A DNA stretch of 64,000 bases from contig NW_018408761.1 in NCBI RefSeq assembly GCF_002113885.1, positions 997,580 through 1,061,579 of the forward strand. Direction: 5' to 3'. This document shows, piece after piece, positions 4,581 through 60,843 of the stretch; positions within the stretch are counted from its first letter, which is position 1, and every line of letters begins with the position of its first letter. Origin of the DNA: Mizuhopecten yessoensis. Its lineage: Eukaryota. The notes under the pieces were generated by a model. That model made no database searches, was not told the DNA's origin, and was given only the letters and a program-made list of their open reading frames with translations. The translations under genes were made by a program, and so were the position numbers.

Positions 4581-4779
4581 AAAATGACATATTATCAAAC
4601 AAAATACAAAATTTGATTTGTTTTTTGTATTGGAAATTTGATGTGCATTCAAGCATAAACAGATAAAGGAGTCTTGCAAATGCATGACAATCTTGGAAAG
4701 CTAAGGGAATTCCCAATTTCATTATCTTTTTTCTTCTTTCCCTTTCTACCAACCAGAAAACCCTTTAGAGAAGAAAACC

Positions 4780-14645: not shown

Positions 14646-16213
14646 TTTTTAGGTCACCTGGTTGGATTTTTTTCAAACTTGGTCAGAATCATCCTTGGTA
14701 GATGAGGCTACAAAATTGTAAAATTGGGATTCCTACCCCAACCCCTGGGGCCAGGGCGGGGCCCCAAAGGGAAAATTAACCAATATTTCAAAAATCTTCT
14801 TCTTCAGACTCAGAGGTACTACATTTTCTCTACACGAAAAGAAAGATCATCAGTGGCTTTACTTAAATTGTAAATTTCAGGACCCCCAAGCTATCCGTTC
14901 TCCCTTGGGGAGGGGGTAAAGTTTACTATAGTTTATATAGGGAAATAACACTTTTGGGTATATTTTGACAACTTTCTGTAGGAAATTATTTTTACTTGGT
15001 GAGAATTATCCTTGGAGGTAGATGGTTTCAAATTGTAAAATTGAGATTCCTACCCCGACCCCTGGGGCCAGGGCGGGGCCCCAAAGGGAAAATTAATCAA
15101 TATTTCAAAAATCTTCTTCTCCAGACTCAGAGGTACTACAGTGATTTTCTCTACGTGGAAAGAAAGATCATCAGGGGCTTTACTTAAATTGTAAATTTCA
15201 GGACCCCCGAGCTATCCGTTCTCCCTTGGGGAGGGGGTAAAGTTTACTATAGTTTATATAGGGAAATAACACTTTTGGGTATATTTTGACAACTTTCTGT
15301 AGGAAATTATTTTTACTTGGTGAGAATTATCCTTGGAGGTAGATGGTTTCAAATTGTAAAATTGAGATTCCTACCCCGACCCCTGGGGCCAGGGCGGGGC
15401 CCCAAAGGGAAAATTAATCAATATTTCAAAAATCTTCTTCTCCAGACTCAGAGGTACTACAGTGATTTTCTCTACGTGGAAAGAAAGATCATCAGGGGCT
15501 TTACTTAAATTGTAAATTTCAGGACCCCCGAGCTATCCGTTCTCCCTTGGGGAGGGGGTAAAGTTTACTATAGTTTATATAGGGAAATAACACTTTTGGG
15601 TATATTTTGACAACTTTCTGTAGGAAATTATTTTTACTTGGTGAGAATTATCCTTGGAGGTAGATGGTTTCAAATTGTAAAATTGAGATTCCTACCCCGA
15701 CCCCTGGGGCCAGGGCGGGGCCCCAAAGGGAAAATTAACCAATATTTCAAAAATCTTCTTCTCCAGACTCAGAGGTATTACAGTCATTTTCTCTGCATGG
15801 ATGGAAAGATCACCAGGGGTTTTATTTAAATTGTAAATTTCAGGACCCCCGAGCTATCCGTTCTCCCTTGGGGAGGGGGTAAAGTTTACTATAGTTTATA
15901 TAGGGAAATAACACTTTTGGATATATATTTTATCCATTTTCAGCAGAAAATTACTCAAACTTAGTCAGAATCATCTTTGGTGAATGAGAGTATTACTTTG
16001 GGAATCCTGTCCCATCCCCAGGGGCTAGGGCGGGGCCCCAAAGGGAACATTTACCAATATTTTCAAATTCTTATCCTTTGATGTCATGACAAGTATTGTA
16101 TTTCACTTAGTTTACATGCTGATTTCCACTTCACATCTAAACAATAAAATAAAGCTACCAGTACCTATGATATAACTCAGGTGACCGCTAAGGCCCTTGG
16201 GCCTCTTGTTTTT
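14646..16213 (+). mobile_element. Composite non-autonomous element, family B, with internal 321-bp tandem array
   Basis: Head TTTTTAGGTCACCTGG (14646). Tail CTCAGGTGACCGCTAAGGCCCTTGGGCCTCTTGTTTTT (ends about 16213). Lies in intron 12. Confidence 0.7.
14680..16080. repeat. 321-bp tandem repeat, about 4.3 copies
   Basis: Two identical 63-codon ORFs and one variant copy start at 14996, 15317 and 15638, an exact 321-bp spacing. Partial diverged copies lie at both ends. Confidence 0.95.
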
Positions 16214-32488: not shown

Positions 32489-33507
32489 GTGAGTGATCCA
32501 GTCTCATCACCTTGTTGTATGAGGCTTTGTTATTGTTGGTTGTAAGCAAGGGAGAAACTCTCAGCATCATCCTGAGAAAATAATCTGACCCAAGCATCTG
32601 CACTAACAAATCTCATATGAAGGATTGTAATTTTAACACAGTACTGGGTCTCTTCTAAAGTGGTGGACGTTTTTTTGTTTCAAACATTACTATACTGTAG
32701 ACCTTGGTTTGAACTCTCATACTAGTAGAATGACTCAGGCATTTATATTCACAAAGTTCACTACAAAGCAAACAGTCATTTAAGTCAGAATGAACAAAAA
32801 ATATAACACTGAGTTCCTTGTTAAATTTCTTTTTGCAAATAATGTTAACGAGCTTTCCTTTAGCATAGGAAAGGGGGTGAGTCTAAATTACAGGTAACAA
32901 ACTTAGTGGTTAAACTATATCATAGTGATCTCAATGTCTTTACTCTAATATACAATTTCGCAACTTTCGTGTTGAGCGATAAACTTCATGTTTTTCCTGC
33001 CATATAATTTCACTGAACCTATTGGAACAGAAGATAATGCCCAAATTCTTCAAGAATTTCTTGAAGTCTCTCAAAAAACAGGGACATAATTCAAATCAGA
33101 GCTTAGTCAATGATTAAAGCTTAATAGGGTAGAAACATGCAGACTAGATCACAAATTAAAAACAAATTTTGCTACTGAAATCATCACATTACATATTGGA
33201 ATACTGGTAGAAGTGGTTCAGTATGATTTACAGAAACAATTATACATATAGATTTGAAATATAGCATTACAAAGAGACAATCTACAGGAAATACGTGTTT
33301 AAAGCTGTCAATCAATATCCATTCCCTTAGTTAACTCATTCACCCCTGATTTCATAATGAATTATTCCAAACTTTGAATTGGAAGAGTTCAAATGTGTCT
33401 TCAGGGGTAATTGAGTTAAATATGATCTCTGAAAATTTCATCTTTAAGAGATATTTAAGAGGTAGTCTTGTACTTCTATGTCACTTTTATGTTTTAATAC
33501 TCTCCAG

Positions 33508-33678
33508 ATGAACACTCAAGTTCAGAAGGCATGCCGTCCAGGTATTTCTGGTGTTAAAGTGGAGTGGCAGCAAAACATGGACACGACCAACAGACCTCTT
33601 CAGGCCCCTAATCACATCCCAAGTTTGTTTTCTGGGTCACGACAGGTCGTGTATGGCTTTGTACCTAACTGTACACAG
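33508..33678 (+). CDS. PARP4: PARP4-like exon 23
   Basis: Acceptor ATACTCTCCAG|. MNTQVQKACRPGISGVKVEWQQNMDTTNRPLQAPNHIPSLFSGSRQVVYGFVPNCTQ (compare vertebrate ..VSVKWQQ...LQAPAQVPSLF...LLVYGFIPHCTQ). Donor CAG|GTGAGA. Confidence 0.9.
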
Positions 33679-35760
33679 GTGAGAATTTTTATTACACTGA
33701 TGTGCTGGTAAGCAGGGGTTCAACTAGTTATATCTTTGTATGGCTTTGTACCTAACTGCACACAGGTGAGAATTTTTATTACACTGATGTGCTGGTAAGC
33801 AGGGGTTCAACTACTCCCCTCGGTAGGGACAAGTTATATCTTTGTATGGCTTTGTACCTAGCTGTACACAGGTGAGACTTTGTATTACACTGATGTACTG
33901 GTAAGCAGGGGTTCAACTACTCACCTCGTTAGGGACAAGTTATATCTTATCTTTGTATGGCTTTGTACCTAACTGTACACAGGCGAGAATTTTTATTACG
34001 AGGATGTGCTGGTAAGCAGGGGTTCAACTACTCGCCTCGTTAGGGACAAGTTATATCTTTGTATGGCTTTGTACCTGAATTTAGGCAGGGGAGGCTTTGT
34101 ATTACACTGATGTGCTGGTAAGCAGGGGCTCAACTACTCACCTCGGTAGGGACAAGTTATATCTTCATATGGCTTTGTACCTAACTGTACACAGGTGAGA
34201 ATTTTTATTACGAGGATGTGCTGGTAAGCAGGGTTTCAACTACTCACCTCGGTAGGGACAAGTTATATCTATGTATGGCTTTGTACCTAACTGTACACAG
34301 GTGAGACTTTTTATTACGAGGATGTGCTGGTAAGCAGGGGTTCAACTACTCCCCTCGGTAGGGACAAGTTATATCTTTGTATGGCTTTGTACCTGAATTT
34401 AGGCAGGGGAGGCTTTGTATTACACTGATGTGCTGGTAAGCAGGGGTTCAACTACTTATTTCTGGTGTTAAAGTGGAGTGGCAGCAAAACATGGACACGA
34501 CCAACAGACCTCTTCAGGCCCCAAATCACATCCCAAGTTTGTTTTCTGGGTCACGACAGGTCGTGTATGGCTTTGTACCTAACTGTACACAAGTGAGAAT
34601 TTTTATTACGAGGATGTGCTGGTAAGCAGGGTTTCAACTACTCACCTCGGTAGGGACAAGTTATATCTTCATATGGCTTTGTACCTAACTGTACACAGGT
34701 GAGAATTTTTATTACACTGATGTGCTGGTAAGCAGGGGTTCAACTACTCCCCTCGGTAGGGACAAGTTATATCTTTGTATGGCTTTGTGCCTAACTGTAC
34801 ACAGGTGAGACTTTGTATTACACTAATGTGCTGGTAAGCAGGGGTTCAACTACTCACATCGGTAGGGACAAGTTATATCACGCTTTATATCTAGATAAAA
34901 TAAAACGAGTTCATTACAAAGATGACCGGACAAAAAATGATGTATTCAATATCAATATCAATATTGATATATCTTTGTATGGCTTTGTACCTAACTGTAC
35001 ACAGGTAAGACTTTGTATTACACTGATGTACTGGTAAGCAGGGGTTCAACTACTTACCTCGTTAGGGACAAGTTATATCTTTGTATGGCTTTGTACCTAA
35101 CTGTGCACAGGTGAGACTTTGTATTACACTGATGTGCTGGTAAGCAGGGATTCAACTAGTTATATCTTTGTATGGCTTTGTACCTAACTGTACACTGGTG
35201 AGACTTTGTATTACGAGGATGTGCTGGTAAGCCGGGGTTCAACTACTCACCTCGGTAGGGACAAGTTATATCTATGTATGGCTTTGTACCTAACTGTACA
35301 CAGGTGACACTTTGTATTACGAGGATGTGCTGGTAAGCAGGGGTTCAACTACTCCCCTCGGTAGGGACAAGTTATATCTTTGTATGGCTTTGTACCTAAC
35401 TGCACACAGGTGAGAATTTTTATTACACTGATGTGCTGGTAAGCAGGGGTTCAACTAGTTATATCTTTGTATGGCTTTGTACCTAACTGCACACAGGTGA
35501 GAATTTTTATTACACTGATGTGCTGGTAAGCAGGGGTTCAACTAGTTATATCTTTGTATGGCTTTGTACCTAACTGCACACAGGTGAGAATTTTTATTAC
35601 ACTGATGTGCTGGTAAGCAGGGGTTCAACTAGTTATATCTTTGTATGGCTTTGTACCTAACTGTGCACAGGTGAGACTTTGTATTACACTGATGTGCTGG
35701 TAAGCAGGGGTTCAACTACTCACATCGGTAGGGACAAGTTATATCACGCTTTATATCTAG
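33543..35760 (+). repeat. Minisatellite (about 86-110 bp unit, about 19 copies) seeded from the last codons plus 5' splice site of exon 23; includes a 136-nt second copy of the exon 3' part at 34457-34592
   Basis: Each unit starts with TATGGCTTTGTACCTAACTGTACACAG|GTGAGA (YGFVPNCTQ plus donor). It continues with ATTTTTATTACACTGATGTGCTGGTAAGCAGGGGTTCAACTAC(TCACCTCGGTAGGGACAA)GTTATATCTTTG. Confidence 0.9.
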
Positions 35761-42087: not shown

Positions 42088-42549
42088 GTAAGTATTAAAA
42101 TATGTTACTTAATATGTAAATGAGTGATAAGCTAGACAGACTATCCTGTATGTGCAGATTTGGCAGAGAAGTTAACACTCATGTCTCCCACAAACGCTGG
42201 AATGCAATCCCTTGAGCTATTTTAGCATGGATTTTCATTCCTCAGAGCTTTTGCAGCATAGATTTTTCAGAGAACATGTTTTTCTCCAATAATCCAGACG
42301 GAGAATTAAATTGTCTGCAGTGGGTGCTATAGTGACTGGGATGTAACAATCAAGTGAGATGTCACTGTGGTGAAAGATTTAATTAATACACCAGCCCACT
42401 GCACGACACAAACAAATGGAGATTTAGACGGAGCCTTTCCTTCTAATGTCTGTAGTTACTGTGTACCAGATGTTGATAATACTCTTTTCATATCAAAATA
42501 TATTTTGAAAAAAGAATTGATGAAAGTTTTACATTTATTCCCATTGCAG

Positions 42550-42726
42550 TCCCAATCGAGATACACACCCTGACTGGTAGGACTATCCCCGTGAGTGTGT
42601 CCGAGGGCGACACCGTGTCTGACTTGAAGAATAAGATCCATCAGATAGATGGACTTGACCCAGAGCAGCAGAGATTGATTGTTGGTGGGAAACCGCTGAA
42701 GGATCTCGCTGTTCTCTCCGATCTTG
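42550..42726 (+). CDS. PARP4: PARP4-like exon 30 (ubiquitin-like domain, first three quarters)
   Basis: Acceptor TTATTCCCATTGCAG|. (F)PIEIHTLTGRTIPVSVSEGDTVSDLKNKIHQIDGLDPEQQRLIVGGKPLKDLAVLSDL, which aligns with ubiquitin [58 protein letters not shown]. Donor CTTG|GTAATT, phase 1. Confidence 0.85.
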
Positions 42727-44738: not shown

Positions 44739-46463
44739 TTTTAGCTCACCGGCCTGAAGGGCAAGTGAGCTTATGCTATGGCGCGGCGTCAGGCATCCGT
44801 CATCTTTTCCTAAAAAACGCTACTTGTCATAAACGACTGAGCAGATTTTGACCAAATTTGGTCAGAAGCATCCTTATGGGAAGGGGAACAAATTTTGTAT
44901 AAATGGTGGGTCTGGCCCCCTAGGGGCTGAGGGGTGGGGCCCAATAGGGAAAATATAGCAAATTCTTTAAAATCCTTCTTCTTTTGTAGGAATAAAAGGA
45001 TTGGTTCCATATTTGGTCTGAAGCATCCTTGGGGGAAGAGGAACCAATTTTGTATAAATGGGGGGTCTGGCCCCTGAGGGGCCTGAGCGACAGGCCAAAT
45101 AGGGGAAACATAGCAAATTCTTTAAAATCCTTCTTCTGTAGGAATGAAAGGATTTGTTCCATATTTAGTCTTAAGCATCCTTGGGTTAAGGGGAACCAAT
45201 TTTGTATAAACTGTGGGTCTGGCCCCTTTGGGGCCTGAGCGACGGGGCCCAATAGGGGAAACATAGCAAATTCTTTAAAATCTTTCTTCTGCAGGAATGA
45301 AAGGATTTGTTCCATATTTGGTCTGAAGCATCCTTGGGTGAAGTGGAACCGATTTTGTATAAGCAAGGGGTCTAGCCCCCATGGATCTGAGGGGCGGGGC
45401 CAAAAGGGGTCAATTGCGCTATATTGATTTAAGCGACTTCTTCTCTGGAACTAAGAGATGGATATCAACCATATTTGACTGGAAGCATCCCTCTGTAGTG
45501 GAGATTCACAATTGTACAAATGGTTGGGCTGACATCCCAGGGGGCTGAGGTGCGGGTCCAAAAGGGCGCAATTTGGCTATATTGGTGTACGACTTCTTCT
45601 GTAGCATTATACCATGGATATCGATCATATTTGGTCAGAAGCTTTCATGGGAAGTAGGGATTCAAAATTGTACAAATGGTGGGGCTGACCCCCCGTGCTA
45701 AGGGGTGGGGCCAAAAAAAGTTTATTACTTGGAAATGGTTGAGATCCCAACCATATAACCATATATATAATTGTGGAGTATGAAGAGAAGCATTCACATT
45801 TGCTTCAAGGATGGCCTAGGGTCTGGCCCCACCCTTTGAGACATAGTCCCTGGGTCATATCTTTGAAACGATTGAGATCCGCACCCCAGAACTATATATA
45901 CAAATGCTTGGCATAAAGAGACAAAAGTAGTCATGGTATTAAAATAGACCCTGGGGTCTGACCGAACCCCTAGGGACCTAGTTTCTTAGTCACAGCTTCG
46001 AAACAGTTGAGATCCCCACCCTATAACTATGCATATATACAATTGCTGAGTATAAAGAGATGAATGCACATATGCTTCCAGGATGGCCTTGGGGTCTGCC
46101 CAAACTTTGCAGACTTAACCCCTGGGTAAATATAACTTTGAAACAGTTGAGATCCCCACCCCAAGACTATAAATACAAATGCTAGACAAAAAGAGACGAA
46201 TATAGTCATGATATTATAATTGATCCTGGCGTCTGGCCACAACCCGAGGGATCTAGTTTCTGAGTCACAGCTTGGAAACAGTTGAGATCCCCACCCCATT
46301 ACCATACATTAAATTGCTGGGCATGAAAAATCTAATACAGACATACTACAAGAATTGACATTGGGGTCTGGCATATACCCTTGGATCTCATTTGGAGAAT
46401 ATTTTGCTTTTTGATTGCTTAGATATTCAGGTGAGGAATTCAGGCCCTCTGTGCCTCTTGTTT
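44739..46463 (+). mobile_element. Long family A composite element (three different internal tandem arrays), ending about 130 bp upstream of exon 31
   Basis: Head TTTTTAGCTCACCGGCCTGAAGGGCAAGTGAGCTTATGCTATGGCGCGGCGTC. Internal arrays of about 120 bp (44860-45400), about 165 bp (45400-45720) and about 150 bp (45720-46320). Tail TTCAGGTGAGGAATTCAGGCCCTCTGTGCCTCTTGTTT. Confidence 0.7.
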
Positions 46464-46593
46464 ACCATAAGAATACATCATATTTGATTGAGAGGATGTG
46501 CTTTTAGAGGTGGCAGCTGTTTTGATACAACGTTATGTGAGGGCATGAGTTAGCCTCTATATAACAATTGTATTTTTTTTCTATATTCTTCAG

Positions 46594-46694
46594 ATCTGGA
46601 GTATAATGCTGTCTTCCTGTTACCAAGGCTGCGAGGGGGACTTAGTTTTGGTCTCAAGGAAGATTTGAAAACAAAGCGTATTCTCGCGGAAAAC
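46594..46694 (+). CDS. PARP4: PARP4-like exon 31 (ubiquitin-like domain C-terminus with RLRGG)
   Basis: Acceptor TTTTCTATATTCTTCAG|. (D)LEYNAVFLLPRLRGGLSFGLKEDLKTKRILAEN. RLRGG is at 46626-46640. Donor AAC|GTATGA, phase 0. Read-through of the donor gives V then TGA. Confidence 0.8.
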
Positions 46695-46777
46695 GTATGA
46701 TATGACAATAAGACATAAAATGTGGATTCCACTCTCAAAAATCTAAGGGTGGGGTAGAAAGTGGTTTATTGGACATT

Positions 46778-48637
46778 TTTAGCTCACCTGCCCGAACGGC
46801 AAGTGAGCTTATGCCATGGCGCGGCGTCCAGCATCCTTCAACTTTTCCTAAAAATCGCTACTAGTCATAAACGACTGAGCAGATTTTGACCAAATTTGGT
46901 CAGAAGCATCCTTATGGGAAGGGGAACAAATTTTGTATAAATGGTGGGTCTGGCCCCCCTGGTGGCTGAGGGGTGTGGCCCAATAGGGAACACATAGTAA
47001 ATTCTTTAAAATCCTTCTCCTTCTGTAGGATTGAAAGGATTTGTTCCATATTTGGTCTGATGCATCCTTAGAGAAAGAGGAACCAATTTTGTATAAACCG
47101 TGGGTCTGGACCCCGAGGGGCCTGAGGGGTGGGGCCCAATAGGGAACACATAGTAAATTCTTTAAAAACCTTCCTCTTCTGTAGGAATGAAAGGATTTGT
47201 TCCATATTTGGTCTGAAGCATCCTTAGGGAAAGAGGAACCAATTTTGTATAAACCGCGGGTCTGGCCCCCGAGGGGCCTGAGGGGTGGGGCCCTATAGGG
47301 ATCACATAGTAAATTCTTTAAAATCCTTCCTCTTCTGTAGGAATAAAAGGATTTGTTCCATATTTAGTCTGAAGCATCCTTGGGTAAAGGGGAACCAATT
47401 TTTTATAAACCATGGGTCTGGCCCCACAGGGGCCTGAGCGACGGGGCCCAGTATGGGAAACTGAACAATTTCTTTAAAATCCTTCTTCTCTGTAGGAATG
47501 AAAGGATTTGTTCCATATTTGGTCGGAAGCATCCTTCGGTGAAGGGGAACCAATTTTGTATAAACAAGAGGTCTGGCCCCCAGGAACTTGAGGGGCGGGG
47601 CCAAAAGGGGGCAGTTGCGCTATATTAATTTAAGCGACTTCTTCTCTGGAACTAAGGGATAGATATCAACCATATTTGACTGAAAGCATCCCTCGGAAGA
47701 GGAGATTCAAAATTGTACAAATGGTTGGGCTGACCCCCCGTGCTAAGGGGTGAGGGTTGCTATTAACGACTTATTCTGTAGAATTATGCTAAGGATATCA
47801 ATCATATTTGGTCAGAAGTATTCATGGGAGGTAGGGATTCAAAATTGTACAAATGTTTGGGCTGACCCCCCTGTGCTAAGGGGTTGGGCCAAAAAAGGTT
47901 TATTACTTGGAAATGGTTGAGATCCCCGCGGTATAACCATATATACAATTGTGGAGTATAAAGGGAAGCATGCACATTTGCTCCCAGGATGGCCTAGGGT
48001 CTGGCCCCACCCTTTGAGACATAGTCCCTGGGTCATAACTTTGAAATGATTGAGATTTCCACCCCAGAACTATATATACAAATGCTTGGCATATAGAGAC
48101 AAAAGTAGTCATGGTATTAGAATAGACCCTGGGGTCTGACCGAACCCCTAGGGACCTAGTTTCTTAGGCAAAGCTTCGAAACAGTTGAGATCCCCACCCT
48201 ATAACCATGCATATATACAATTGCTGAGTATGAAGAGATGATTGCACATATGCTTCCAGGATGGCCTTGGGGTCTGCCCCACCCTTGCAGACTTAACCCC
48301 TGTGTCATAACTTTGAAACAGTTGAGATCCCCACTTTAAAACTATATACAAATGCTGGGCTTAAAGAGAAGAAACCAGTCATGATATTAAGAATTGATCC
48401 AGGGGTCTGGCCACAACCCTAGGGATCTAGTTTCTGAGTCACAGCTTGGAAACAGTTGAGATCCCCACCCCATAACCATACATTAAATTGCTGGGCATGG
48501 AAAATCTAATACAGACATACTACAAGAATTGGCATTTGGATCTGGCATATTCCCTTGGATCTCATTTGGAGAATATTTTGCCATGATTGCTTAGATATCC
48601 AGGTGAGCGATTCAGGCCCTCTGGGCCTCTTGTTTTT
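46778..48637 (+). mobile_element. Long family A composite element, starting about 84 bp downstream of exon 31
   Basis: Head TTTTTAGCTCACCTGCCCGAACGGCAAGTGAGCTTATGCCATGGCGCGGCGTC. Same array order as 44739-46463. Tail TCCAGGTGAGCGATTCAGGCCCTCTGGGCCTCTTGTTTTTT. Confidence 0.7.
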
Positions 48638-48765
48638 TAAATCTACTCTTCATGAATGATAGGTTTCTTCAGTACCTTTAAATTGTGAATGCAATTACCC
48701 TGATGTCTCCCATTCACCACTGGGAAGGGGGAAATTCTGCTACATTTCCTATGGTTATAACAGCT

Positions 48766-50481
48766 TTTAGCTCACCTGGTCCGAAGGACCAGGGTGAGCT
48801 TATGCCATACCATGGCATCCGTCGTCCGTACGTACGTCAACAATTTCTTTAAACGACTTCTTCTTCTTAACCACTGGTTGGAATTAAACTAATTTTGACT
48901 GGAAGCATCCCTAGGTGGTTGGGATTCAAAATTGTACAAATGGTGGGGCTGACTCCCCAGGGGGCTGAGGGGTGGGGCCAAAAGGGGTCAATTTGCCCAT
49001 ATTGCTGTAAGCGACTTCTTCTCTGGAACTAAGAATTGGATATCAACCATATTTGACTGGAAGCATCCCTAGGTGGTGGTGATTAAAAATTGTACAAATG
49101 GCGGGGCTGACTCCCCAGGGGGCTTAGGGGGGGCCAAAAGGGGGCAATTTTGCTATATTGCTACAAACGACTTCTTCTGTAGAACTGTGCACTGGATATC
49201 AATCATATTTGATCAAAAGCATTCCTGGGAGGCAGGGATTTAAAATTGTACAAATGGTGTGGCTGACCCCCCAGGGGGCTGAGGGGCAGGGCCAAAAAGG
49301 GTATTTGGCTATACTGCTTTAAGTGACTTCTTCTCTGGAACTAAGTGATGGATATCAACCTTATTTGACTGGAAGCATCTCTAGGTGGTGGAGATTCAAA
49401 ATTGTACAAACGGTTGGGCTGACCCCCCAGGGGGCTGAGGGGCGGGGCCAAAAGGGGGCAATTTGGTTATATTGCTATAAATGACTTCTTCTGCAGAACT
49501 ATGCCATGGATATTGATCATATTTGGTCGGAAGTATTCATGGGAGGCAGGGATTCAAAATTGTACAAATGGTGGGGCTGACCCCCCGGGCTAAGGGGTGG
49601 GGCCAATAAAATGTATTACTTGGAAATGGTTGAGATCCCCACCATATAACCATATATACAATTGCTGAGTATAAAGAGAAGAATGCACATTTGCTTCCAG
49701 GATGTCCCTAGGGTCTGGCCCCACCCTTGGAGACATAGTCCCTGGGCCATAACTTTAAAACGGTTGAGATCCCCACCCCAAAACTATATATACAAATGCT
49801 GGGCATAAAGAGACGAATGCAATCATGATATCAGAATAGACCCTGGGGTCTGACCGAACCCCTAGGGACCTAGTTTCTTAGTCACAGCTTGGAAACAGTT
49901 GAGAGCCCCACCCTATAACCGTATATATACAATTGCTGAGTATAAAGAGATGATTGCACATATGCTTCCAGGTTGGCCTTGGGGACTGCCCCACCCTTGG
50001 AGACTTAACCCCTGGGTCATAACTTTGAAATGGTTAATATCCCCACCCCAAAACTATATATACAATTGTTGGGCATAAAGAGACGAATGCAGTCATGACA
50101 TTAGAATTGATCCCAGGGTCTGCCCCACCCTTGCAGACTTGGCCCCTGGGTCATAACTTTGAAACGGTTGAGATCCCCACACCAAAACTTTATATACAAA
50201 TGCTTGGCAAAAAGAGACAAATGCAGTCACGATATTAGAATCGATCCTGGGGTCTGGCCACAACTCTAGGGACCTAGTTTCTGAGTCAAAGCTTGGAAAC
50301 AGTTGAGATCCCCACCCCATAACCATACATAAAATTGCTGGGCATGAAAAATTTAATATAGCTATGCTACAAGGATTGGCCTTGGGGTCTGGCATATTCT
50401 CTTGATCTCATTTGGAGAATAGTTTGCCATGATTGCTTAGGTATCCAGGTGAGCGATACAGGCCCTCTGGGCCTCTTGTTT
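48766..50481 (+). mobile_element. Long family A composite element (third consecutive copy)
   Basis: Head TTTTAGCTCACCTGGTCCGAAGGACCAGGGTGAGCTTATGCCATACCATGGCATCCGTCGTC. Tail TCCAGGTGAGCGATACAGGCCCTCTGGGCCTCTTGTTT. Confidence 0.7.
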
Positions 50482-51060: not shown

Positions 51061-51232
51061 CATTGATTAATCAGCCTTAATATTTTTACTTTTGTCAGTT
51101 AAACTATATTTAGTCACTATACTCAATGTAAACTTCTTAATAATACCCACAAAAACCACAGAAGCAATGATTCATGAGTTTACTATTGTACAGTACAGGT
51201 ACATGTGAAGTATTAACATTTCTGTATTTCAG

Positions 51233-51459
51233 GACATGAATGAGTATGATCAGATATATGGTAAGAAGGTGCATACGGAAAAGGACAAAAGCTGTACTGA
51301 TGATGGAAAAAACCCGGTGAAGATGTCCTCATTGTTTTCTCCTTTTAGGCAATCCTTACGAATGATGGCTCCAAGGAAACAGTTAGCAACCAAAGCTGCC
51401 AGAAAATCTGCACCTGCAAACTTTGATGAAAATGAGGAGGAGCAGAATGAGGATGACAG

Positions 51460-51497
<38 letters not shown>

Positions 51498-54313
51498 TTG
51501 AAAAGATGGGCAACTTTAGCTGCATGGCACTTCCAGATGACAACGTGGTTGATGATGCTACGAACAAGAAACAGGAAGTGTCAGATGTAGGAAGAATACC
51601 AGACTCTCCACTCTCAGCAACACAGTTTGGCCCCTTGTCTCCAAAATGTTCAGATTCATTTGGTACAAACTTTGAAAAATTTGAAATCTCTCAGTATTTA
51701 GATGAAGACATGGAGATTGATTTAGATACTGAAGACCCGGCATTCCTCATTCTCACTTCTGAAATATCTGACATATTTTCACCTTCAATGGCAGGCCATT
51801 CTCAGGACACTCCAGCCTATATATCAACCTCCCCATCTTACAAACCAACTTCCCCATCCTATTCGCCCACTTCCCCATCTTACAAACCAACTTCCCCATC
51901 CTATTCGCCCACCTCCCCATCTTACAAACCAACTTCCCCATCCTATTCGCCCACCTCCCCATCTTACAAACCAACTTCTCTATCCTATTCGCCCACTTCC
52001 CCATCTTACAAACCAACTTCTCCATCCTATTCACCAAATAGAAGAGCACGAAGAGCCAAATCAACATTTGAGGATTTCCAACATGAATCAACATCAAACA
52101 ATAAAGATTTTGTGGTTTCAGGTTCAAGACAAGCAAAGTCAAGCAGCACATCTAGTGAACATGGTTTGTGTGGAGCTCCAGTGCAAGCAGAACCAGGCAG
52201 TAAACCAAGTCAGAGCTTCAATTTTAATGCTTCGCTACAAACAGCATCAAGCAATGAACCAACACAAAGTTTGGGATTGGGGGCTCCAAACCTAGCAGAA
52301 CTAGGCGGTAAACCAAGTCAGGGGTTCAATTTTAGTGCTCCTCTAGTAACAGCATCAAGAAATATATCAACACAAAGTTTGGGATTGGGGGCTCCAAACC
52401 TAGCAGAACCAAACACAATGCCAAGTCAAGGGTTTTCCTTTGGAGCTCGAATGCAAACAACTCAAAGCGCTTCACCAGCCGAAGGTTTCAGTTTTTCTCA
52501 GAATCAAACATTGCAGAGCATTACCAGTAAAGGAAGCCATTGTTTTGGATTTGGGACTTCAAAACCAGCCGGAGCAAGCAGAACGACAAGTCAAGGGTTT
52601 TCCTTTGGCGCTCAAATGCAGTCCCAACGATGCAATATACCAACCCAAGATTTCTATTTTGGAGCTTCAAATTCAGCAGGTTTTGGAGATGACGGTGACA
52701 GACGTGGTGGTTATGGAGGTGTCAGTGTTAGACCTGGTGGTTATGGAGATGACAGTGACAGACGTGGTGGTTATGGAGGTGTCAGTGTTAGACGTGGTGG
52801 TTATGGAGGTGTCAGTGAGGGACTTGGTGGTTATGGAGGTGTCAGTGTTAGACGTGGTAGTTATGGAGGTGACAGTGTTAGATGTGGTGGTTATGGAGGT
52901 GTCAGTGAGGAATGTGGTGGTTATGGAGGTGTCAGTGAGGGACTTGGTAGTTATGGAGGTGTCAGTGAGGGACTTGGTAGTTATGGAGATGACGGTGTCG
53001 GACGTGGTGGTTATGGAGATGACAGTGTCGGACGTGGTGGTTATGGAGGTGACAGTGTCGGAGGTGATGGTTATGGAGGTGTCAGTGAGGGATTTGGTGG
53101 TTATGGAGGTGACAGTGAGGGATGTGGTGGTTATGGAGGTGTCAGTGTTAGATGTGGTGGTTATGGAGGTGTCAGTGAGGGACGTGGTGGTTATGGAGGT
53201 GACAGTGAGGGACGTGGTGGTCCTAGACTTGCTGGTTCTAAAGATGGACATGTTTCTTACATAGAAACAGCACCAACATTTACATATTTGAAGGATCTTG
53301 ACTTGAATTTAGCAAAACATGATCCAAAAACTAGGATATTGAAGGAAAATGACAGAAGACCTTCCAGTGTAACAGAGAAGGATCTGCCTTCACAGCCTTT
53401 CAGACATGTACAGGATAAAATGTTCCCACCAGACTTTGATGAATCCTTATTACCTAAACAAAAGAGAAAAATTCCTCCTGTTGGAAGAGGAGGTTCTGGA
53501 TTCACTGCAAGGAATGACCAGGGTCCTGCTGAAACAACCAAAGAACAAGGTCGAAGGTCATTAAAGTCAGTCAGAGGCGCAATGCATGGTGCAAGATCAA
53601 GAGACAGAAATAGGGAACAATCTCGTGAGCTTATTGTGCTGGATAAGAGTAAAAAACTAAGTTTGAGTCATGACAGAAGGCGGAGGAGTTTGAGTAGAAG
53701 TTTGAGTCGAGACAGAAGACAGAGGAGTTTGAGTAGAAGTTTGAGTCGAGACAGAAGGCGGAGGAGTTTGAGTAGAAGTTTGAGTCGAGACAGAAGGCGG
53801 AGGAGTTTGAGTAGAAGTTTGAGTCGAGGAAGGGGGAGAAGAGACTTGGAAAGATGTTACAGTAGAGATAGAGCAAGAAAGGAAAATAAAAAAATGCACA
53901 GATCAAGTGGAAATAATGATACAAACAGTAGGAATAAAAATAGGGACAAAGCAGGAAGCAAAATAGACAGAGATCCTGCAAGAGAAAGTAAGAAACAGAT
54001 AAAGCATAAAAATGAAAAGAAGGAGCAAACAAAGGCTGATGAACAGGTTGTCAAAACATTTGGGAAAAAAGGGAAGAAAAGGGAACAGACAAGGGATGAT
54101 GAAGAGATTGTCAAAACTGGAGGGAAGAACCTGTCAGGAAAGTTGGAATATGATGATCATGAGAAAATGGACTTTACAGTGGACATGGCACCAACTTTGA
54201 AAGTCTGGGATGTAACATCAGAGACAGGCAAGGACATTGTGAAATTCATAAAGTATATTTCTGATTCAATCTTCTTTTATATACAAAAGATCTGTAATTT
54301 TCTACAAATTCAA
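51233..54313 (+). CDS. PARP4: PARP4-like exon 32: 3081-nt low-complexity exon (H3-tail copy, poly-Asp, CTD-like heptads, FG-like, GGYGG, RS and Lys-rich modules)
   Basis: Acceptor TTCTGTATTTCAG| with phase 0 from exon 31. Single open frame of 1027 codons (the track ORF 51236-54337 is the same frame). Donor CAA|GTGAGC after ..KICNFLQIQ (compare vertebrate PARP4 ..SCFLQIK..). An alternative weaker donor is ATCT|GTAATT after 54293. Confidence 0.8.
51368..51418 (+). other. Histone H3 tail copy: [17 protein letters not shown] (identical to H3 residues 15-31)
   Basis: Direct translation of GCT CCA AGG AAA CAG TTA GCA ACC AAA GCT GCC AGA AAA TCT GCA CCT GCA in the exon 32 frame. Confidence 0.9.
51461..51496 (+). 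repeat. (GAT)12 coding microsatellite, poly-Asp tract
   Basis: Twelve uninterrupted GAT codons within [18 protein letters not shown]. Confidence 0.95.
51824..52039 (+). repeat. RNA polymerase II CTD-like heptad array (42-bp two-heptad unit, about 10 heptads)
   Basis: [72 protein letters not shown]. Confidence 0.9.
52214..52687 (+). other. FG-nucleoporin-like segment
   Basis: SFNF, GFNFS, GFSFG, GFSFS, CFGFG, GFSFG, FYFG and AGFG motifs, separated by uncharged S/T/Q/N/A/G/P-rich spacers. Includes a 34-aa duplicated unit ([20 protein letters not shown]). Confidence 0.7.
52700..53221 (+). repeat. 30-bp coding tandem repeat, about 17 copies of the decapeptide (R/L/C)GGYGG(V/D)S(V/E)(R/G)
   Basis: [50 protein letters not shown]...[14 protein letters not shown]. 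Other frames on both strands stay open across it because of the repeat. Confidence 0.9.
53657..53833 (+). repeat. 42-bp coding tandem repeat, 4 copies of [14 protein letters not shown] (RS-domain-like)
   Basis: [62 protein letters not shown]. Confidence 0.9.
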
Positions 54314-54344: not shown

Positions 54345-54975
54345 GTAATGATATACAGTCCTGCAGTAAAACTTGTCTAAGAACTCACCTGTCTAAATCA
54401 TCTTGTAGTGTTACAGTCCTACAGTAAAACTTGTCTTAGAACTCACCTGTCTAAATCATCTTGTAATTATATTTATACAGCCCTACAGTAAAACTTGTCT
54501 AAGAACTCACCTGTCTAAATCATCTTGTAATTATATATATACAGTCCTACAGTAAAACTTGTCTTAGAACTCACCTGTCTAAATCATCTTGTAATTATAT
54601 ATATACAGCCCTACAGTAAAACTTGTCTAAGAACTCACCTGTCTAAATCATCTTTTAGTGTTACAGCCCTACAGTAAAACTTGTCTAAGAACTCACCTCT
54701 CTTAATCATCTTGTAATTATATATATACAGTCCGACAGTAAAACTTGTCTTAAAACTCACCTGTCTAAATCATCTTTTAGTGTTACAGCCCTACAGTAAA
54801 ACTTGTCTAAGAATTCACCTGTCTAAATCATCTTGTAGTGTTACAGTACTACAGTAAAACTTGTCTAAGAATTCACCTGTCTAAATCATCTTGTAGTGTT
54901 ACAGCCCTACAGTAAAACTTGTCTAAGAACTCACCTGTCTTAATCATCTTGTAATTATATATATACAGTCCTACA
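54345..54975. repeat. 57-65-bp minisatellite, about 10 copies, starting about 30 bp after the exon 32 donor
   Basis: CCTACAGTAAAACTTGTCT(A/T)AGAACTCACCTGTCTAAATCATCTTGTA(GTGTTACAG / ATTATATATATACAG) repeated. Confidence 0.9.
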
Positions 54976-57305: not shown

Positions 57306-57393
57306 TGTGAGGATGTCGGGATCTGGAAAGGCATTGTACGAAAGATTTCAAAAGTCCCTAACACTGAGGATCTCCTGCAACACATTAATACGG
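57306..57393 (+). CDS. PARP4: PARP4-like exon 34 (C-terminal vault-interaction-like region)
   Basis: Acceptor AAATTCACTTTCAG|. (N)CEDVGIWKGIVRKISKVPNTEDLLQHINT (compare vertebrate ..WQDAVPWTELLSLQTED). Donor ACG|GTACAG, phase 0. The other frames hit stops here or in exon 35. Confidence 0.7.
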
Positions 57394-58840: not shown

Positions 58841-58913
58841 ATCCACTTCCGTGGAATTCTTGTTTATTTCTGTGTTGTTGGAAAATCATTTTGTATATTC
58901 TTGTGTTTCACAG

Positions 58914-59013
58914 GGACAATATTGGGAACTGACTCCAGAGCTGTGTCAAACCCTCGGTGTTTTCTACATCAAGGTCACCAACCAGCTGAAGCTACATGGC
59001 CTGTACTCCTTAG
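58914..59013 (+). CDS. PARP4: PARP4-like exon 35 (C-terminal vault-interaction-like region)
   Basis: Acceptor TTCTTGTGTTTCACAG|. GQYWELTPELCQTLGVFYIKVTNQLKLHGLYSL(G) (compare vertebrate DGFWKLTPELGLILNLNTNGLHSFLKQKGIQSLG). Donor TTAG|GTATGT, phase 1. Confidence 0.85.
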
Positions 59014-59576
59014 GTATGTATACAGACCCTTGAGGGTTCTCGTAATTATGTCACAATATACGTCTTTGGTCATACAGCTCACACGTCTTGAGCTCAATAT
59101 GGCTTGACATCCATCGTCTATCAGCCATCTGTCAACTTTTTATTTAAATGACTCCTTGTCCAGAAAAGTTAAACTGATTTCAATTAAATATGATGTGGAC
59201 AATTCCTTGTAAATGGGACTCAACATTGTATCAACTTAGTGTGTGGTTGTTTTGCCTACTTGCCAACTTTTTGAAATTTCCATGGGGGAGATAATGCATG
59301 CTCAGAATGAAAACCATTAATAAAATGTGTGTATCATCAGGTCATAGAAAATAGGTAGAGTTTAGCAAATTAAATGGTTAAAAATCATTTTTGGGTCCAA
59401 AATCGAGAGTCTCCCTCTAAAATAAGGAGAGTTGACAAGTATGCTTGTGGGGGCAGAGAGATGGGGCCTGATACAGGAAATAGAAGTTCAATTTTCAGAG
59501 GACTTCTCCTTCAGTATTAGTGAAGGGAATCAATTTTAAGTAATAAGTAATAAAGGATCCCTTGACCAAGGAGACT

Positions 59577-59801: not shown

Positions 59802-60475
59802 TTATGTTTATTAAGGGAAGACTCTTGCTCCCTATGGGGACAGAGGGGTGGGTCCAGATACAGATAATAGGGGTTAAATCTTTAAAATACTAAGCCTCCA
59901 GTAGGAGGGAAACAGTTTTAATCCAATTTGCTTGAAATGATCTCTTGACCATGGAACTTAATACTATTGTAAAAGAAGGGTGTGGACCCCTTGGAGCAGA
60001 GAGGAGGGGCATACAATAGGGAAATATGGGGAATTCTTTTAAAATGTTATTTAAACAAATTGTTTGCCTGCCTTAACTTTTTTGGAACAATGGTGTGGGG
60101 CTCAATAGTGTAAACTAAGGTCAATTTGAACAATAAATACATAACAATGTTATATAAATACACAAAAGCATTCTGAGAATATAGAATAATCAGCTTTAAA
60201 TTGAAGTATGCTATTACAGTTCAGATAATCTTTGAATTACTGTATATTGTTCAATGCAGTTTAACTTAAGCCATTTTGCCCTCGGTAATGACAGCAAATT
60301 TATCATGACAGCAACTATTGATACACGCTATACTATACATAGCCATTGCATGAGAGGGCAAAAATAACACTTGGTGAAAAATTTTACAAGTAAATGGCGA
60401 CAGTTTCCCAGCTGTAAACAGTATGGTTTTACAGTATGAAATGTAGTCACTTGTAAAAATAAATCTGTGTTGTAG

Positions 60476-60843
60476 GAAGCCATGCTGCATCCTTAGGAGA
60501 AAACATGGTAGCAACATATCTTGTGGTCCTCAAGATAATACAGATCATTTACCAGCAGATGAACAGAAAACCACTGAAATTGGACCTGGCCGGATTTGCG
60601 TCTTTGGACTTGATGAACTGGACATTGAATTGTAACAATACCCTGTCCATCAAGTTAGATACTACGCGGTCAACAGGATGCTCAGCGGTGTTGTATCTCC
60701 ACAATGAAATATCAGGTGTTCACAAATGGTTGACCGAGAAGCGTGGTGAACATGAACGACTCTGTAGGCAGTTAGAACTAGGACATTCCTTACAAACTTT
60801 CACTTGGAACCTTTTCTGTGCTCTCAACGAAAAGCCAGTCTGA
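60476..60843 (+). CDS. PARP4: PARP4-like exon 36 (last coding exon)
   Basis: Acceptor AATCTGTGTTGTAG|. (G)SHAASLGENMVATYLVVLKIIQIIYQQMNRKPLKLDL...SAVLYLHNEISGVHKWLTEKRGEHERLCRQLELGHSLQTFTWNLFCALNEKPV. Stop TGA at 60841-60843. Compare vertebrate ..LLDLIATMLVLQFIRTRLEKEG...AFEAIKQASEWVRRTEGQYPSICPRLELGNDW. Confidence 0.85.

Follow-up and report, generated by a model that had tools for sequence, protein, structure and literature searches.

Why does a scallop PARP4-like gene encode an exact stretch of the histone H3 tail? The question is raised by a 64,000-nucleotide stretch of the Mizuhopecten yessoensis genome (contig NW_018408761.1, positions 997,580 to 1,061,579 of the forward strand; hereafter the window, in whose numbering positions are given), in which a first-pass annotation had noticed 17 residues of H3 inside a PARP4-like reading frame. 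We find that the segment at 51368–51418 is genuine coding sequence, a selectively maintained copy of H3 A15–A31, and one module among look-alikes of host proteins. The copy and all exons and modules of the gene described below lie on the plus strand.

An exact copy of the H3 tail

Translated in the frame of its exon, 51368–51418 is identical to canonical H3 sequences from the database at 17 of 17 residues (A15–A31), and it carries the H3 positions K18, K23, R26, K27 and S28 together with the ARKS motif. Both points had been claimed in the first-pass annotation and both hold. A chance match is ruled out, the probability of 17/17 identity being ~20^-17 per position. When full-length H3 was searched by tblastn against all six frames of the window, this was the single site found, with the match reaching 19 of 24 residues against H3 8–31. 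The upstream extension of the similarity, at 51347–51367, is weak (RQSLRMM against H3 R8–K14, two of seven residues identical); judging from the alignment with another scallop, Ylistrum balloti, which still has RRATGGKG there, it is a decayed part of an H3-like unit. The histone fold (H3 32–135) gave no match in any frame of the window in the same search, and Pfam detected no Histone domain in the exon. With no histone fold, the segment is a copy of the tail and neither a histone gene nor a pseudogene; an H3 pseudogene or retrogene is thereby ruled out.

The gene and its large exon

The window has a GC content of 37% and contains introns and repeats resembling short interspersed elements (SINEs). 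Orthologues were sought with a 2231-residue pseudo-protein, made of hand-picked upstream exon pieces and the large exon with low-complexity sequence masked as X, and the proteins returned were ~0.57–1.75 times the length of this query. The best database matches were PARP4 orthologues (E = 0 down to 1e-177), headed by a 3048-aa protein of Ylistrum balloti (P0121, 70% identity) and including PARP4-like proteins of other bivalves, gastropods, an echinoderm, sponges and annelids as well as vertebrate PARP4. P0121 is collinear with the window across ~33 exons from 4756 to 60834 (tblastn). Some 29 upstream coding exons lie at 4756–42086. The concatenated exons of the window gave Pfam matches to BRCT (E 2.7e-6), BRCT_2 (8e-7), PARP (6.3e-11), VIT (2.6e-17), VWA_3 (4.1e-25) and ubiquitin (2.7e-13), and the H-Y-E positions of the PARP domain are visible as MHAS, GIYF and DDEFVVY. 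Orthologue matches, collinear exons and Pfam domains thus bear out the earlier assignment, and the gene is, by homology, PARP4-like, that is, a vault PARP of clade 5.

A ubiquitin-like domain follows the enzyme body. Its first exon (42540–42725, located by tblastn of P0121) is 48% identical to ubiquitin, and a small exon at 46594–46694 (EYNAVFLLPRLRGG, ending FLLPRLRGGLSFGLKEDLKTKRILAEN, with a phase-0 donor) completes the fold, which ends ..FLLPRLRGG; the Ylistrum equivalent of the small exon lies at L001:31420-31488. The H3 copy stands 63 residues past this LRGG, in a large internal exon of ~1000 codons (51233–~54240) that encodes a disordered linker. The acceptor of this exon, a good one, is tttcag|GAC at 51232/51233, and its donor is at 54212, 54239 or 54253. 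A stop-free open reading frame of 1033–1042 codons carries the copy, ~45 codons into the exon, and the exon count makes this coding exon 32, as had been proposed. The exon is internal rather than terminal: its counterparts are residues ~1776–2862 of P0121 and L001:34695-38867 of the Ylistrum DNA. Searched alone, it gave no Pfam match, because its modules lack the length or the complexity that a match needs.

Beyond it lie three C-terminal exons (57309–57389, 58905–59015 and 60472–60837; 81%, 81% and 58% identical to the C-terminus of P0121) that encode a conserved C-terminal domain. The motifs YWELT..SLG.. and LELG are conserved in all invertebrate and vertebrate orthologues read. No Pfam model matched this domain, and its exons align only weakly with human PARP4 1581–1636 and 1668–1702 (E 0.13, against the PDB entry for the human protein); we regard it as the putative counterpart of the MVP-interacting domain of human PARP4 (human ~1562–1724), as that domain is defined in PMC10450202 and PMC12280208. 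The H3 copy is thus placed, as far as homology allows the parts to be named, at the start of a long disordered linker that joins the enzyme body to a putative vault anchor.

Local purifying selection on the copy

The large exon of Ylistrum starts with five full and two degenerate tandem H3-like units, of the form ..RRATGGKG-APRK(Q/R)LATKAARK(S/F)APA-VD followed by SISLPSEESSEDDDSEEVSDEEEENEK. The closest of these units reads GCT CCA AGG AAG CAG TTG GCA ACA AAA GCT GCC AGA AAA TCT GCA CCT GCA, and differs from the window by three synonymous and no non-synonymous changes. In this comparison of one species pair, the window against Ylistrum, the proportion of synonymous differences (pS) across the 17 H3-like codons was 0.23 (three changes) and that of non-synonymous differences (pN) was 0 of 37.7 sites. 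The 37 codons before the copy had a pS of 0.52 and a pN of 0.53, and are essentially neutral; the 74 codons after it had a pS of 0.56 and a pN of 0.41. Over the 862 alignable codons of the large exon pS was 0.62 and pN 0.38, and over 833 codons of the conserved N-terminal exons the values were 0.52 (synonymous divergence, dS, ~0.89) and 0.105. A pN of 0 in the 17-mer as against 0.41–0.53 in its flanks therefore indicates strong local purifying selection on the copy. At the pN of the whole exon, the probability of zero change over 17 codons is ~2e-8, and the H3-like 17-mer is the only window of 17/17 identity in the alignment of the exon with Ylistrum. No further scallop orthologues were found with a query comprising the ubiquitin-like domain, the masked exon and the C-terminal domain, which returned only the Mytilus galloprovincialis fragment P0254.

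Two other parts of the exon are constrained in the same alignment. The heptads resembling the C-terminal domain (CTD) of RNA polymerase II, described below, have a pN of 0.22, and an acidic and hydrophobic island of 36 residues at 51671–51778 ranks second in conservation among the pieces of the large exon (pN 0.20 against pS 0.56 over exon residues 151–197, which cover most of the island). This island resembles an acidic activation-domain-like motif, and no copied protein was matched to it. Constraint on the copy, the heptads and the island argues that the exon is read in the stated frame. The copy is present in Ylistrum in the same exon and is hence not absent from close relatives. In this respect the proposal of a built-in histone mimic is supported: the segment is a true look-alike of the H3 tail that has been kept identical by selection.

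These data bear on two explanations in which the copy would have no function or no reality. In the first, the exon, permissive and quick to evolve, took up a piece of an abundant histone mRNA or gene, which persists as a neutral relic. Capture by abundance does predict the kind of donor seen across PARP4 linkers, since histones, actin, calmodulin, ubiquitin, P-protein and 14-3-3 are among the most highly expressed genes. However, a relic should not show zero non-synonymous changes in ~38 sites beside flanks at 0.41–0.53, nor be kept in more than one genus of scallops while four other lineages of bivalves and two gastropods have related copies; the codons, moreover (AGG and AGA for Arg, TTA/TTG for Leu, TCT for Ser), are those that would be expected of an old copy that has drifted to the local composition. 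We therefore consider a neutral relic very improbable, and a decaying pseudogene fragment is ruled out by the absence of non-synonymous change relative to the flanks. In the second explanation, for which we found nothing in favour, an assembly chimera has placed H3 sequence in the PARP4 locus. This is scarcely credible, given that homologous DNA, in the same exon and frame, is present in the independent assembly of another genus (Ylistrum, GCA_031769215.1), by which misassembly is ruled out, and that no histone-fold sequence follows the 17-mer in any frame and the reading frame is unbroken through the junctions.

Acidic tract and histone-tail copies in other PARP4 proteins

The copy is followed at 51419–51496 (exon residues 63–88) by an acidic tract that includes 12 Asp encoded by (GAT)12 at 51461–51496; Tandem Repeats Finder reports a period-3 array at 51460–51501. 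The 40 residues that follow the copy have a net charge of -21. The first-pass annotation was right about the acidic run and the (GAT)12, whereas its distance of nine residues is slightly off, as acidic residues begin three residues past A31 and the EEEQ run six residues past it. Equivalent acidic or Ser-rich tracts follow H3- or H4-like copies in P0121, P0122, P0254, P0131 and P0135, and in bivalves such a run occurs within ~25 residues after almost every H3(15–31)-like or H4-like copy. The suggested pairing of a basic H3-like peptide with an acidic tract therefore recurs, in scallop, mussel, clam and unionid orthologues. The tract would most likely screen the basic peptide within the molecule, much as a histone chaperone does, or have a multi-site phospho-acidic character.

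To survey copies across the family, reference proteins were compared by blastp with 120 PARP4-like proteins. H3-tail matches were found in Ylistrum, three Mytilus species, Sinanodonta, Mercenaria and the snails Batillaria and Littorina, while none of the ~80 vertebrate sequences in the set matched H3 or H4. The Mytilus pieces correspond to H3 3–20, 20–33 and 34–56, with GVKKPHRYRP(A/G)TVALREIRRYK after a long acidic insert. Sinanodonta, a freshwater mussel, has an 18-letter copy of the H3 tail, and the clam Mercenaria two H3-like copies, one of them LLATWAARKSAP. Both gastropod copies (SRTRQTARRSTGGRAPR in Batillaria, RTNQTARMSTGGKAPARMQMA in Littorina) belong to orthologues that keep H3 1–20. 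We take the scallop ..ARKSAPA.. to resemble H3.1/H3.2 and the Mercenaria ..ARKSAPSTG.. to resemble H3.3. The Mercenaria mercenaria protein P0135 additionally has, at ~1745–1790, a near-exact copy of the H4 N-terminal tail, H4 1–21 (GKGGKGLGKGGAKRHRKV / SRGGKGGKGLGKGGAKRHRKV; 18 of 19 aligned residues match H4 4–22). It is followed by DSESEEDL, and its neighbours in the linker are the two H3-like copies and a pair of calmodulin-like EF-hands.

Carriers of the H3 peptide are very rare outside PARP4. When 1.84 billion representative proteins were scanned with HMMER, the query being the copy and its surroundings (47 residues), 14 matches were obtained at E<=1e-3; 11 of the 13 inspected were true H3 or chimeric H3-containing models, and the other two were P0061 and P0244. 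The latter, of 7722 aa, was rejected as a non-histone carrier, being a repeat artefact of SPIKQLATQTAP units. P0061 is a predicted protein of 165 aa from the Logan assembly SRR6399773 (L002:1855-2352), on a 4.3-kb contig without PARP4 context; it has two H3(15–31)-like units with an acidic/Ser-rich stretch after each, and may be an independent example of a module of H3 tail plus acid.

The distribution of copies bears on the idea, also raised at first pass, that the protein contains its own substrate or pseudosubstrate: the peptide, through its KS and ARKS motifs, would be ADP-ribosylated by the PARP domain of the same protein or would fill the acceptor site, with automodification or autoinhibition as the outcome. 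The PARP domain does retain the residues expected for activity (MHAS, GIYF and DDEFVVY, and the Pfam PARP match), K27-S28 is kept in the copy, and the tandem units of Ylistrum would suit a multi-site acceptor. However, gastropods keep another part of the tail (H3 1–20), Mytilus keeps in addition a piece without KS motifs (H3 34–56), an acceptor motif needs few residues and not 17 identical ones, and the fragments of folded domains found in other linkers (actin, 14-3-3 and clathrin, see below) would make poor acceptor sites. No result obtained here ties PARP4 to KS-serine targeting or to HPF1, and we consider this explanation rather improbable.

Other modules of the scallop linker

Downstream of the copy, the large exon is a succession of further repeats. 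A CTD-like array of di-heptads (~5 copies, 51824–52039) has ~90% identity to the consensus CTD, and RPB1 CTD fragments dominated the matches when the exon was searched unmasked. Its five 42-bp units match at 96%, and YKPTSPS alternates with YSPTSPS; as Lys occupies heptad position 2 in every second repeat, half of them have Lys in place of the Ser2 site. Next come repeats resembling FG nucleoporins (GFNFS, GFSFG and FGFG; a 108-bp repeat at 52040–52684), of which GFSFG and FGFG are conserved in Ylistrum, then RGG/GGYGG repeats (30-bp unit, ~18 copies, 52685–53221), RS-domain-like repeats (13-residue unit, ~4 copies, 53675–53842) and a Lys-rich basic tract (53876–54127). The RS-like array is greatly expanded in Ylistrum, oysters and Mercenaria. 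The order of the modules is the same in Ylistrum, and other bivalves share the sequence of H3/H4 copy with acid, then CTD, then RS.

This composition makes the linker resemble a ligand array for nuclear transport receptors, in which the H3 copy would act as a histone-type nuclear localization signal while the FG, RGG, RS and Lys-rich modules bind importins and transportins. Such an array would either bring PARP4 into the nucleus or link karyopherins, and vaults, with one another or with nuclear pores. All scallop modules other than the CTD heptads belong to karyopherin-binding classes, and the H4-tail copy of Mercenaria is also a histone nuclear localization signal; vaults have been reported at nuclear pores. 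The CTD heptads stay unexplained, however, as do the copies of actin, VAMP, calmodulin, 14-3-3, clathrin and the P-stalk in other phyla. A few basic residues suffice for a nuclear localization signal, so that 17/17 identity over a dS of ~0.9 would not be needed, and the C-terminal anchor of human PARP4 keeps the linker inside the vault lumen (PMC12280208). For these reasons we think a karyopherin array unlikely, in either of its forms, while ranking it ahead of the other rivals.

Alternatively, the linker may be a scaffold for condensates or vault cargo, its modules recruiting host partners into or onto vaults independently of any pathogen. In favour of this, all of the modules are archetypal multivalent low-complexity regions, and loss of PARP4 changes the set of vault-associated proteins in human cells, which led to the proposal that PARP4 recruits cargo (PMC12280208). 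On the other side, generic multivalency does not call for exact identity to H3, and the rapid turnover of modules from lineage to lineage, the change in copy number (one unit against five full and two degenerate ones in the two scallops) and the positive selection seen in vertebrates fit conflict better than housekeeping. Since a scaffold overlaps with a bait, sequence alone cannot separate the two. We assign the scaffold about the same low probability as the built-in substrate.

Host-protein copies in the linkers of other phyla

We compared the region between the vWA region and the C-terminal domain across orthologues, using the curated thresholds of Pfam. Matches above threshold comprised Actin in the sponge Dysidea and in Hydra (5–66/410), Synaptobrevin (VAMP) in Dysidea and the brittle star Amphiura (5–60/89 and 21–56/89), 14-3-3 in the annelid Owenia (127–222/223), EF-hands with 60–70% identity to calmodulin in Mercenaria, Babylonia and Nucella, the clathrin propeller (Clathrin_propel) in Mytilus, and a full ubiquitin fold, mostly ending LRLRGG-P, in molluscs and a sponge. 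The tail of the ribosomal P-stalk (..SDDDMGFGLFD) fell just under its cut-off in Amphiura (Ribosomal_60s 48–88/88, 24.7 bits against 28.1), and also occurs in Owenia, Dysidea, Patella, Aplysia, Dendronephthya and several teleost PARP4s. Most of these are fragments and not whole domains, and peptide-level mimicry therefore fits better than the acquisition of working domains. Seen against this background, the H3 copy is one of many host-protein look-alikes in the linker, which speaks for an array of baits or decoys of a general kind and less for a regulatory device specific to H3.

Several of these look-alikes deserve separate description. In the teleost PARP4s P0164, P0185, P0194 and P0215, copies of the P-stalk C-terminal peptide (SEESDEDMGFGLFD) lie at ~1227–1300, and Anableps has two; host-protein copies are thus not confined to invertebrates. 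This peptide is the docking site of ribosome-inactivating toxins and of translational GTPases. Look-alikes of the extreme C-terminus of actin (GPSIVHRKVF and AGIVHRKIF) occur in the linkers of P0141 (Dysidea, ~1563–1574) and P0140 (Owenia); in Dysidea the string stands directly after a P-stalk-like motif, and the same linker has a WH2-like motif (Pfam WH2, E 0.0024, under the curated cut-off). In the orthologues (P0122–P0131 and P0141) the ubiquitin-like domain has 37–74% identity to ubiquitin, and in most of them it ends LRLRGG with Pro as the next residue; this context is resistant to ordinary deubiquitinases. The domain with its LRGG end could be processed there or could itself act as a decoy of ubiquitin.

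A possible bait or tripwire

Identity to an invariant host protein within a freely evolving region is what would be expected of mimicry, and the natural partners of the copy would be those of the H3 tail itself. Any factor by which that tail is bound, modified or cut, be they effectors and proteases of pathogens or the host's own tail-directed enzymes and carriers, would be expected to act on the copy. A factor bound within the tether would come to lie beside the ADP-ribosyltransferase and be held captive in the vault; a cut would free the enzyme body from the vault and so work as a tripwire. Most mapped clipping bonds of H3 fall inside A15–A31, from L20/A21 through K27/S28: the 3C protease of foot-and-mouth disease virus cuts at L20/A21, cathepsin L and a yeast endopeptidase at A21/T22, and cuts are also mapped at K23/A24, R26/K27 and K27/S28 (PMC5988574). 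The clipping bond A31/T32 lies outside the copied stretch. Between lineages the repertoire of baits would turn over, each bait being held identical to its invariant host model.

That the copy and the linker form a bait or tripwire array is the reading we favour, and we put the case for it and the case against it at equal weight. More tentatively, the PARP4 tether may be a lineage-variable library of integrated decoys of host hubs, displayed inside the vault beside an ADP-ribosyltransferase. The hubs copied in such a library, invariant proteins on which toxins, viral proteases and other effectors have to act, would be the H3 and H4 tails, the RNA polymerase II CTD, FG, RGG and RS repeats, ubiquitin, actin, calmodulin, 14-3-3, the SNARE motif of VAMP and the P-stalk tail.

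Several points weigh against a bait. The function proposed for the copy is drawn from its position, its conservation and analogy alone, and no mollusc pathogen factor that targets the H3 tail was identified in this analysis. The scallop modules (H3 tail, FG, RGG, RS and Lys-rich) can be read as ligands of nuclear transport receptors, a non-immune fit that is equally good. Synonymous difference in the 17-mer is itself low (0.23 against ~0.55, three changes only). Several orthologues are automatic gene models, in which the clathrin-like insert of Mytilus and the BRK-like insert of Saccostrea could be mis-joined exons. Finally, positive selection on PARP4 has been shown in mammals and birds, not in molluscs (PMC4038475).

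What vaults do, and what PARP4 does inside them, has been asked since 1986, and positive selection on the disordered largest exon of mammalian PARP4 has so far been the only clue from evolution. Were the decoy-library reading true, vault-bound PARP4 would serve innate immunity in animals as a trap with baits or as a tripwire, comparable to the integrated decoys of plant NLRs; the vault particle would gain a concrete function, and positive selection on exon 30 of mammalian PARP4 would be explained. The mollusc linker can be read directly as copies of host proteins, and from the vague notion of a 'host-pathogen interface' one thereby arrives at concrete hypotheses that can be tested. For the biology of histone mimicry the H3 copy matters however the vault is to be read.

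Other features of the locus

Directly past the stop of the long open reading frame, within the following intron, a 58-bp tandem repeat (1.9 copies, 96% matches) occupies 54354–54465. Further upstream, an intronic duplicate at 34458–34610 of the exon at 33505–33699, which encodes GVKVEWQQNMDTTNRPLQAPNHIPSLFSGSRQVVYGFVPNCTQ, has 80% identity to the orthologue. It lies inside a tandem array (~33750–35400) whose ~39-codon units translate to LYTGETLYYTDVLVSRGSTTHLGRDKLYLCMALYLTVHR, and, from its sequence, might be an alternative or mutually exclusive exon or else a segmental duplication. The introns at 14700–16100 and 44900–50400 are crowded with tandem and dispersed repeats, SINE-like or otherwise, among them three units ~321 bp apart that translate to QLSVGNYFYLVRIILGGRWFQIVKLRFLPRPLGPGRGPKGK and many ..GLRGGAKRGQ.. 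copies; repeat copies occupy most of the 8.5 kb that separates the exons of the ubiquitin-like domain from the large exon. Upstream of the PARP4-like gene, a stop-free stretch of 474 codons on the minus strand (1230–2651, SSDSDSDSDSIEEFQIKRYLNRDFGQG) is probably a neighbouring, divergently oriented gene.

Comparison with known systems

Within the limited literature searched, we found no publication describing an H3 copy in PARP4, as the first-pass annotation had supposed, and no paper on histone-tail, CTD, VAMP or P-stalk copies in PARP4 or on a bait or decoy reading of them. To our knowledge, the copy is by far the longest endogenous histone-tail mimic.

Histone mimicry is known from motifs of 4–6 residues: ARSK in influenza NS1, the ARKT automethylation site of G9a and ARKS in SARS-CoV-2 ORF8 (PMC6028506, PMC2175347, bioRxiv 10.1101/2021.11.10.468057). 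Like these, scallop PARP4 has histone-tail sequence in a disordered part of a non-histone protein, where readers and writers of histones could engage it. The known mimics, however, have cores of 4–6 residues, and the viral ones serve the virus, whereas the PARP4 copy comprises 17 identical residues (~21 in Ylistrum, and ~50 in pieces in Mytilus). It is also host-encoded, tandem in one species, flanked by an acidic tract and surrounded by many other mimics, and it is known from sequence alone.

The nearest parallel within the family is the largest exon of vertebrate PARP4 (human exon 30), which is disordered, encodes >300 residues and varies in length (Daugherty et al. 2014, PMC4038475). It has undergone recurrent positive selection in primates, bats and birds and was proposed to be a host-pathogen interface (PMC4038475). 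In PARP4 the linker separates an ITIH-like region from the MVP-interacting domain, and viral proteolysis or post-translational modification has been suggested to alter vault association (Suskiewicz et al. 2023, PMC10450202); the C-terminal end is fixed within the vault, and the disordered regions lie in its lumen (Lodwick et al. 2025, PMC12280208), and PARP4 loss in human cells, as mentioned, alters the proteins associated with vaults. The scallop exon occupies the same position: a single large exon encodes a disordered linker, variable in length and sequence, just upstream of the vault-binding domain (a putative one in the scallop). While no similarity to other proteins was reported for the mammalian exon, the scallop exon contains recognisable copies of host proteins, and its H3 piece is under purifying selection where the vertebrate exon is under positive selection. 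The likeness is one of equivalent position, since homology of the exons across phyla cannot be shown.

Domains appended to clade-5 PARPs have been described before, with 14-3-3, actin or actin-binding and ubiquitin-related domains in amoebae, Capsaspora, lancelet and sea urchin (Perina et al. 2014, PMC4245714). The same kinds are seen here in sponge, Hydra, annelid and molluscs. Perina et al. read them as functional signalling or cytoskeletal links, without a unifying interpretation as baits. New relative to that work are the histone tails, the CTD, the FG, RGG and RS repeats, VAMP and the P-stalk tail, as is the observation that the copies are fragmentary.

The closest functional analogy would be with the integrated decoys of plant NLRs and the protease tripwires of NLRP1 and CARD8, in which the action of an effector on the copy triggers a host response (PMC7857732, PMC13037943, PMC10249858). 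In those systems, as in PARP4 if the bait reading holds, a host protein linked to defence displays what pathogens target, as a copy or a mimic, in a part of its sequence that evolves fast. PARP4 differs in being neither an NLR nor an inflammasome sensor, and in having many mimics, known here from their sequence, strung along one tether inside a cage-like particle.

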